Below, piece by piece: positions 48,553-49,048 of a stretch of DNA of 64,000 nucleotides (its first letter is position 1; each line of letters starts with the position of its first letter). Under the pieces are notes generated by a model, which was not told the DNA's origin, did not search any database, and saw nothing but the letters and a program-made list of their open reading frames with translations. A program made the position numbers and the translations under genes. The DNA is taken from the UHGV virus genome UHGV-0174779. One strand, written 5' to 3'. This DNA comes from a virus.

Positions 48553-48903
48553 ATGAAAAGTACATTAAGTGATAATGTAGGTTTTATCATCTTCTCTGCT
48601 CTCGTGTTCTTTGGAGGTATGAAGTTCAATGAATACCGAACAGACAGTAACAATCTTGATAAAGAGAAGCATCAACAAGAGTTAGAGATTGAAAGAAGTA
48701 AGGCAGCTGATGAAGTTGCTCAGAGGGTTCTTACTGGTTTATCCGACTGGAAGAAGAACACGGAAACTGTTTATAAAGAGATGCATTATGAGAAAACTAA
48801 ACCAGTTTTTTATAATGTCTGCGCTAGCGATGACTACATCCGCATGTTCAATGAGCGACAGCAGCAGGCAATCAATGCCCTTACCAACAAACCTAAAAGC
48901 TGA
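48553..48903 (+). CDS. i-spanin (Rz-like inner-membrane spanin)
   Basis: ORF 48529..48903; ATG 48553 after GGAGA; N-terminal transmembrane helix FIIFSALVFFGG then charged coiled-coil periplasmic domain. Confidence 0.55.
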   Translation: MKSTLSDNVGFIIFSALVFFGGMKFNEYRTDSNNLDKEKHQQELEIERSKAADEVAQRVLTGLSDWKKNTETVYKEMHYEKTKPVFYNVCASDDYIRMFNERQQQAINALTNKPKS

Positions 48904-49048
48904 ATGTAGGGTTGACCTACCTCTTTTAGAGAGTGCTCAAGGAAAGGCACTAGCCACTACGTTGGAGTGGTATCAGGACCAGTACACAGAATGTGCTGCT
49001 AATCACAATGGATTGTTAGAAGCTCTGAAAGAGCGTGGAATAGAATAA
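48788..49048 (+). CDS. o-spanin (Rz1-like outer-membrane lipoprotein), overlapping the i-spanin gene in the +1 frame
   Basis: Internal start of ORF 48689..49048: [20 protein letters not shown] lipobox, Pro-containing mature part; begins inside the i-spanin gene and extends past it. Confidence 0.55.

Follow-up and report, generated by a model that had tools for sequence, protein, structure and literature searches.

At positions 48,553 to 49,048 of a 64,000-nucleotide (nt) stretch of the virus genome UHGV-0174779 (the window), two small genes overlap in different reading frames, and the locus raises the question of whether they encode a spanin pair and, if so, where the other lysis genes of the phage lie. 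A preliminary description of this DNA had proposed that the pair comprises an inner-membrane spanin (i-spanin) together with a lipoprotein spanin of the outer membrane (o-spanin), set between a gene for a single-stranded DNA-binding protein (SSB) and a sigma-factor gene with neither a holin nor an endolysin adjacent, and that lysis functions are dispersed, with a SleB-like hydrolase and two small membrane proteins elsewhere in the window as further components. We put the probability that the pair is a two-component spanin, orthologous to a pair already known and catalogued in the genus Kuravirus, at roughly 90%. The lysis genes of this phage occupy two loci: a late holin-endolysin pair, which falls just outside the window, and the spanin genes, which lie in the middle-gene region.

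Both open reading frames (ORFs) of the pair were found at exactly the coordinates first proposed (Table 1). Shine-Dalgarno sites are present for the pair; the ATG of the first gene is preceded 8 nt upstream by GGAG, and its product matches PHROG 1152, 'Rz-like spanin' (E = 1e-38). The protein is 89-96% identical to orthologs in the phages Paul, LAMP, NJ01 and phiEco32; against the loci taken as phiEco32 (L008) and NJ01 (L010), identity is 89-91% for the i-spanin and 95-96% for the o-spanin. Its strongest hydrophobic stretch spans V9-M23 (nt 48577-48621; mean Kyte-Doolittle value 2.27), and the Paul ortholog, CPT_Paul_036, is annotated as an i-spanin with a transmembrane domain (TMD) placed by TMpred at residues 8-23. 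The conserved periplasmic Cys90 (48820-48822) is invariant, together with one sequence block, among 14 aligned i-spanins, and the block EKTKPxFYNVC-x-D-x-Y-x-x-FN is retained across i-spanin homologs. An AlphaFold2 model built from the 14-sequence alignment, which is of low confidence (pLDDT 62) and was used for secondary-structure layout only, consists of a helix at residues 3-80 (anchor plus periplasmic helix), a linker at 81-92 and a second helix at 93-111, a predicted layout that fits the description of Rz-type i-spanins. The periplasmic domain is thus modeled as mainly alpha-helical, as expected of a spanin, and the phiEco32 i-spanin is listed at about 61% helix by Kongari et al. (2018; PMC6139136). 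A Protein Data Bank (PDB) search with the i-spanin profile returned no meaningful match, and neither protein of the pair has a Pfam family above cut-off.

The second gene encodes a predicted lipoprotein precursor. Its signal peptide occupies residues 1-19, with an n-region (MRK), an h-region (FFIMSALAM) and the lipobox T-S-A-C that the preliminary description had read here; cleavage would fall before Cys20 (48845-48847), and the residue at +2 is Ser, not the Asp that acts as an inner-membrane retention signal. Such a signal for signal peptidase II (SpII), with a lipobox cysteine and no Asp at +2, is the kind of N-terminus predicted for an o-spanin. The mature protein of 67 aa holds only 3 prolines and two further cysteines, Cys40 and Cys69, and C20, C40 and C69 are invariant in the aligned o-spanins. 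At least one periplasmic cysteine available for disulfides is expected in a spanin, and C90 of the i-spanin and C40 and C69 of the o-spanin are the predicted candidates. The protein belongs to PHROG 2425 (E = 2.6e-26) and is 94-96% identical to its orthologs in Paul, NJ01 and phiEco32; in Paul the ortholog CPT_Paul_035 bears the annotation 'o-spanin', its SpII cleavage being placed at 19/20 (LipoP SpII score 18.0). An AlphaFold2 model of the o-spanin from 3 sequences was uninformative (pLDDT 45).

The overlap of the two ORFs measures 116 nt, close to the 115 nt estimated beforehand, and an o-spanin gene that overlaps its partner in the +1 frame is an arrangement that, judged from sequence, points to a spanin pair. 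We considered whether the +1-frame ORF might instead be a chance open frame, leaving the 116-aa membrane protein as the only real product. When the codons of the i-spanin gene were shuffled, 18% of the versions kept the +1 frame open across the last 116 nt, so that openness by itself is not significant; moreover, many gene callers skip the o-spanin or shorten it to 57 aa, losing the signal peptide, and a large protein database holds few o-spanin entries, mostly the shortened calls. Variable sites counted by codon position across 9 Kuravirus genomes speak against a chance frame. In the part coding for the o-spanin only, downstream of the overlap, the counts at positions 1/2/3 of the o-frame are 16/2/28, a third-position bias of the kind seen in the i-spanin-only part (9/8/43). 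The overlap itself is the least variable segment, with 0.18 variable sites per nt as compared with 0.26 and 0.32 in the other two, as expected under double coding constraint. These patterns show purifying selection in both frames, with the overlap additionally constrained. Homologs from several phage groups, down to 28% identity, also retain the o-spanin's start codon, its signal peptide, the lipobox Cys and the C-terminal motif C-A/T-x-x-H/A-N-x-L, and the ORF closes right where the sigma-factor gene starts, its stop sharing one base with the next ATG (TAATG, 49046-49050) so that no intergenic gap is left. A chance origin of the second frame is, on this evidence, scarcely credible.

The pair has a close counterpart in the published spanin catalogue. 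Kongari et al. (PMC6139136) placed phiEco32, NJ01, ECBP2 and KBNP1711 in the JH2 family of i-spanins, and the same four phages form an o-spanin family of their own (the NJ01 family). The supplement to that study gives phiEco32 and NJ01 the 'ovl' architecture with an overlap of 115-116 nt, the phiEco32 pair lying at 35417-35768 and 35272-35533 and overlapping by 116 nt; the o-spanin is listed at 86 aa, with a signal of 19 aa and a mature length of 67 aa, and the accompanying notes state that the lipobox was recovered only after the o-spanin start codon was shifted upstream (PMC6139136). In phiEco32, NJ01 and Paul (the gp39/gp38 region of phiEco32) the lengths of 116 and 86 aa, the 67-aa mature o-spanin, the 115-116 nt overlap in the +1 frame and the placement after a gp40 homolog and a terminator, upstream of the sigma factor, are all the same as in the window, and the sequences differ from the window pair by a few percent. 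Homology assigns the window pair to this catalogued spanin family, and the labels 'Rz-like spanin' or 'o-spanin' stand on many other Kuravirus records. The only local peculiarity of the pair is the absence, shared with LAMP, of a macro-domain gene (phiEco32 gp37, Appr-1-p processing) that in phiEco32 and Paul separates the o-spanin from the sigma factor; it is because this gene is missing that the o-spanin stop overlaps the sigma start in the window.

By tblastn, 452 phage records contained a match to the i-spanin and 231 a match to the o-spanin, and an IMG/VR scan with the i-spanin gave 5 loci only, all in Kuravirus-like genomes of about 76-78 kb. More distant homologs, at 28-40% identity, occur in Felixounavirus, Erwinia phiEa21-4-like phages, Sashavirus, and Klebsiella and Proteus phages, with the overlapped arrangement in all. 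Both subunits are represented in Sashavirus (Sasha gp55/gp56) and Felixounavirus, in the overlapped +1 layout, and share motifs with the window pair: NxC...Y..(F/Y)N for the i-spanin, the lipobox plus C....N.L for the o-spanin. In Salmonella phage Sasha the pair closes a contiguous cassette (holin/antiholin, endolysin, holin/antiholin, i-spanin, o-spanin), whereas the Kuravirus pair is relocated to the middle-gene region; in the podovirus Tbat2_2 the spanin homologs come after a putative holin, and in Felixounavirus GEC_vB_BS they lie 1.2 kb from the lysin, beside rIIB. That the pair sits with lysis genes in these distant relatives supports a function in lysis.

The prototype of the two-component spanins, defined by experiment, is lambda Rz/Rz1. 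Like it, the window pair combines a presumed type II inner-membrane protein, with a helical domain predicted for the periplasm, and a small predicted outer-membrane lipoprotein encoded in the +1 frame, has predicted periplasmic cysteines in both proteins, and is presumed to act by the same mechanism. No sequence similarity to the lambda proteins is detectable, however (the i-spanin has no Pfam match above cut-off), and the lambda genes are embedded, within a contiguous S-R-Rz/Rz1 cassette, whereas the window genes are overlapped and stand apart from holin and endolysin. Mature Rz1 is a proline-rich peptide of about 40 aa; the window o-spanin, in contrast, is longer (67 aa mature), proline-poor and partly helical. 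Kongari et al. tabulate it at about 46% predicted helix (PMC6139136). In having a relatively long o-spanin with a predicted C-terminal helix the pair resembles T4 PseT.3/PseT.2, from which it differs in that the T4 genes are separated, the families are unrelated and T4 is a myovirus with another regulatory scheme.

Where, then, are the holin and the endolysin? About 70 phiEco32-like Escherichia coli podophages (Gordonclarkvirinae, Kuravirus) match the spanin region at approximately 92% nucleotide identity, among them XT73, LAMP, 172-1, Paul and Bas91-94; by sequence the window is a phiEco32-like E. coli podophage of the genus Kuravirus. Relative to the orientation in which phiEco32 is usually given, the + strand here is reversed, and the genome is circularly permuted in the window. 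An exact-protein look-up with the tail gene at 61707-62675 led to the ENA metagenome contig ERZ27289034:k119_19566 (L015 in Table 1; 69,090 bp). Its identity to window positions 51707-64000 is 100.000% across 12,294 nt, and to positions 1-3703 it is likewise 100%. Only 4,972 bp of this contig lie outside the window, and they contain, side by side, the holin-like gene and the GH24 endolysin gene of the late module. These genes (L015 5427-6167) lie 2.5-3.2 kb beyond the window end, the endolysin itself 2.5-3.0 kb past position 64000; a distance of about 17.5 kb separates them from the spanins.

The same placement recurs among relatives. In Bas91 the holin (12606-12824) and the endolysin (12854-13345; Phage_lysozyme PF00959, E = 3.7e-32) occupy a central place within the late tail-gene block, as do gp12/gp13 of YF01 (PMC9965538) and the corresponding genes of SU10, phiEco32 and NJ01 (PMC4281155), an arrangement also noted in PMC7881722. 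A tblastn search of the window with the Bas91 holin and endolysin gave noise only and no homolog, because the window ends short of those genes; the apparent lack of an endolysin is an effect of the window cut. The 72-aa 'holin' has one N-terminal hydrophobic segment and two C-terminal cysteines, and carries that label by annotation only.

Table 1. Coordinates of the features discussed. Positions refer to the window unless preceded by L015, which denotes the metagenome contig ERZ27289034:k119_19566.
Feature	Position	Strand	Description
SleB/CwlJ-type Hydrolase_2 gene	18459-18848	+	PF07486, 33.5 bits against a cut-off of 27
ORF with transmembrane segment and coiled coil	19047-19349	+	100 aa; N-terminal transmembrane segment; PHROG 12154; conserved in Kuravirus
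ORF with two hydrophobic segments	39964-40143		59 aa; PHROG 9296; conserved across Kuravirus
TAATGTATA motif, exact copy	47681-47689	+	gp36-type promoter element by motif search; about 60 nt upstream of the ATG of the gp40 homolog
gp40 homolog (phiEco32)	47749-48495	+	248 aa; PHROG 6599 of unknown function, E = 5e-119
Terminator-like hairpin	48517-48540	+	AGCCACC-TTCG-GGTGGCT plus T-run, by sequence scan; between gp40 homolog and i-spanin gene
i-spanin gene	48553-48903	+	ATG 48553, TGA 48901-48903; 116 aa
o-spanin gene	48788-49048	+	ATG 48788, TAA 49046-49048; 86 aa; +1 frame relative to i-spanin
Sigma-factor gene (phiEco32 gp36 homolog)	49048-49692	+	PHROG 1740, E = 1e-44; Pfam Sigma70_r2 under cut-off
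Piece of contig outside window	L015 3704-8675		Remainder of 847-aa tail fibre, holin-like gene, endolysin, Gp10_C tail protein, start of 985-aa fibre
Holin-like gene	L015 5427-5645	opposite to spanins	72 aa; homologous to Kuravirus protein annotated holin, PHROG 11161
GH24 endolysin gene	L015 5676-6167	opposite to spanins	163 aa; Phage_lysozyme PF00959

These locations bear directly on the view that lysis is dispersed, with the SleB-like protein as endolysin, the membrane proteins at 19047-19349 or 39964-40143 as holins, and the spanins as a third, separate piece. Part of that view stands: the spanins are indeed apart from holin and endolysin. The SleB-like and membrane-protein partners are, however, not supported, since a canonical holin-like gene and a GH24 endolysin gene lie just outside the window, and the literature gives lysis to that late pair (PMC9965538, PMC4281155, PMC7881722). 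The SleB-like call itself was sound, since the PF07486 domain is genuine, and the protein also matches the endolysin family PHROG 938 weakly (E = 1e-7); Paul annotates it 'cell wall hydrolase', and some GenBank records label it or its neighbour 'cell wall hydrolase' or 'endolysin'. With its domain present, it is nonetheless not placed in a late unit with a holin: the gene follows a terminator in the far-right region, which is classed as early (PMC9965538), no membrane-protein gene abuts it, and its N-terminus (MLTLTIYYEAGNQP...) has neither a signal sequence nor a TMD. A PDB sequence search with the SleB-like protein gave nothing meaningful, and we found no evidence connecting the protein to lysis.

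The two membrane-protein ORFs likewise exist and are hydrophobic at the places described, and the two hydrophobic segments and Kuravirus-wide conservation of the 59-aa protein, together with the annotation-only status of the 72-aa 'holin', count in favor of such a scheme. Nothing, however, supports either protein as a holin: PHROG 9296 and PHROG 12154 carry no lysis annotation, and the 39964-40143 ORF has a Dps/ferritin-like gene on one side and a thioredoxin gene on the other. We regard lysis by these dispersed components as distinctly unlikely. The SleB-like protein is the third peptidoglycan hydrolase of the genome, besides an SLT-domain (PF01464) protein at 59879-60661 (- strand) and the GH24 endolysin, and the 'DNA helicase' label of PHROG 12154 looks wrong for a 100-aa protein with a transmembrane segment and a coiled coil.

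A further lipoprotein-like N-terminus (MKKLIILVCLISAFG directly before Cys) was seen in the early region, in a 90-aa ORF at 20057-20329 (+ strand). This ORF has no PHROG family, and tblastn against 50,697 phage records, which included those of Kuravirus relatives, found no match to it. An accessory gene specific to the strain, perhaps for a superinfection-exclusion lipoprotein, is one possible explanation. As a second spanin-like pair with 19047-19349 it was rejected, there being about 700 nt and other ORFs between the two, and 20057-20329 being free of homologs in phage records while 19047-19349 is conserved in Kuravirus.

Six ORFs were typed around the spanin pair, across 47749-50781. They include the genes for the gp40 homolog and the sigma factor, one for a DUF3310 protein and one for a 5'-3' exonuclease; as the preliminary description had stated, no holin or endolysin is found next to the pair in this interval. 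The name SSB for the gene at 47749-48495, in contrast, has no backing from Pfam, PHROGs or the PDB: neither Pfam nor PDB searches gave a meaningful match, and the PHROG is uninformative. What speaks for the name is one GenBank record that calls the homolog 'ssDNA-binding protein' and an acidic tail with a terminal Phe (...YEDDNDSPF), which we take to be reminiscent of SSBs of the T7 gp2.5 type. Downstream of the sigma factor, a gene for an 89-aa DUF3310 protein (49689-49958, + strand) replaces the GTP-binding and dNMP-kinase genes of phiEco32 and Paul, as in LAMP.

Upstream of the gp40 homolog, the exact TAATGTATA motif is the likely start of a transcript that reads into the spanin genes; window-wide counts of the motif with one mismatch are not above chance, and its function at 47681 is read from its position only. 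The consensus of gp36-dependent middle/late promoters of phiEco32 is given as tAATGTATAtA / AATGTA (PMC4281155, PMC12276001). In the SU10 paper the whole block is assigned to the middle genes by phiEco32 homology, with a promoter in the corresponding intergenic region (PMC4281155), and PMC9965538 likewise gives the spanin region the middle class. The hairpin ahead of the i-spanin gene, at whose orthologous site a terminator is annotated in Paul, probably limits how much transcription passes on to the genes for the spanins and the sigma factor. By analogy with these related phages, read-through middle transcripts probably give rise to the spanins, as well as to the sigma factor, ahead of the late expression of holin and endolysin. 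Such production would fit spanin biology, since the complexes are inert until the peptidoglycan is gone, and the proven T4 spanin genes pseT.3/pseT.2 are likewise not near t and e (PMC6139136).

Two further sites were recorded in this region. A second exact TAATGTATA copy, at 47609-47617 on the - strand, diverges from the + strand copy within the same intergenic region and is directed away from any obvious minus-strand gene. A promoter-like site lies at 48788-48816, within the spanin overlap; sigma-70 scan hits are no commoner than in shuffled sequence.

Several observations weigh against reading the pair as a spanin. It lies in the middle-gene region, apart from the other lysis genes, and, being about 17.5 kb from holin and endolysin and on the opposite strand, does not form part of a contiguous lambda-type cassette. 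For the o-spanin there is no Pfam family, and a function label is missing from its PHROG, 2425. The anchor of the i-spanin is short (approximately 15-19 residues) and its N-terminus is not clearly positive; the flanking charges do not settle orientation, and a net negative N-terminus is flagged for the NJ01 i-spanin in the notes of Kongari et al. (PMC6139136). The N-in/C-out topology of the i-spanin is consequently an assumption. AlphaFold2 gave low-confidence models for both proteins (i-spanin, pLDDT 62; o-spanin, pLDDT 45), and the literature searched held no experimental test of any Kuravirus spanin.

Some of these same points could be taken to mean that a spanin-like architecture here serves another primary role, as a middle-phase envelope complex acting, for example, in superinfection exclusion or envelope remodeling. 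The middle-region location, the abutment to the sigma gene, the distance from an opposite-strand holin and endolysin and the lack of a functional test in the literature searched all agree with this idea, as does the fact that phage lipoproteins are often exclusion factors, T5 Llp being one example. Set against it, classical lysis cassettes of Sashavirus and Tbat2_2 end with homologs of both proteins, and the genus has no other reported candidate for a spanin. Separate placement, moreover, is known for the proven T4 pair pseT.3/pseT.2 (PMC6139136) and reported for Privateer (PMC7881722). We hold another primary role to be very improbable, and retain the assignment of the pair as a two-component spanin.

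How such a spanin would act can be outlined from the gene structure, signals, conservation, homology and holin/endolysin gene location described above, with topology, complex formation, disulfides, fusion and expression timing borrowed from lambda Rz/Rz1 and T4 PseT.3/PseT.2. The 116-aa i-spanin would be anchored to the inner membrane by its N-terminal hydrophobic segment, with its mostly helical domain in the periplasm. The 86-aa o-spanin precursor would be lipidated on Cys20 and cleaved by signal peptidase II, and the mature protein, because its +2 residue is Ser and not Asp, would be directed to the outer membrane, into its inner leaflet. Covalent homodimers would probably form via C90 in the i-spanin and C40 and C69 in the o-spanin, while the C-terminal parts of the two proteins would bind each other, and the resulting complexes would reach across the periplasm, passing through the meshwork of the peptidoglycan. 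Since the genes of the pair belong to the middle region, with a gp36-type motif and a leaky terminator upstream of them and the sigma gene abutting, the complexes would accumulate harmlessly. Lysis would be triggered when the late holin-like protein and the GH24 endolysin destroy the peptidoglycan; once freed, the complexes would collapse and bring about fusion of the inner membrane with the outer, so that no barrier to release is left. Beyond this outline, Kuravirus lysis may include further components: it is conceivable, if unlikely, that the linkage of spanins and gp36 has a function and is no accident, or that a second module, early and devoted to cell-wall remodeling, is made up of the SleB-like and two-TMD proteins.

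Two features of the structural module were noted in passing. A 55-bp stretch at window positions 1-55, in a - strand gene, occurs twice in the gene for the 847-aa fibre (L015 3649-3703 and 3739-3793), 90 bp apart, a duplication whose sequence suggests a 30-aa tandem repeat. In addition, a 177-aa HNH_3 endonuclease gene (1654-2187, - strand) lies between a 404-aa ORF (2317-3531), which comes after the major capsid gene, and the SU10-adaptor gene, and is probably a homing-endonuclease insertion within the structural module.

The case illustrates how a truncated window can produce an apparently missing endolysin. The pair should be annotated as i-spanin and o-spanin, and has little importance beyond this. 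For the engineering of E. coli phages that are therapeutic candidates, what matters is that lysis genes lie at two loci of different regulatory class and that, because the spanin genes overlap one another and abut the sigma gene, edits there can have polar or dual-frame effects.

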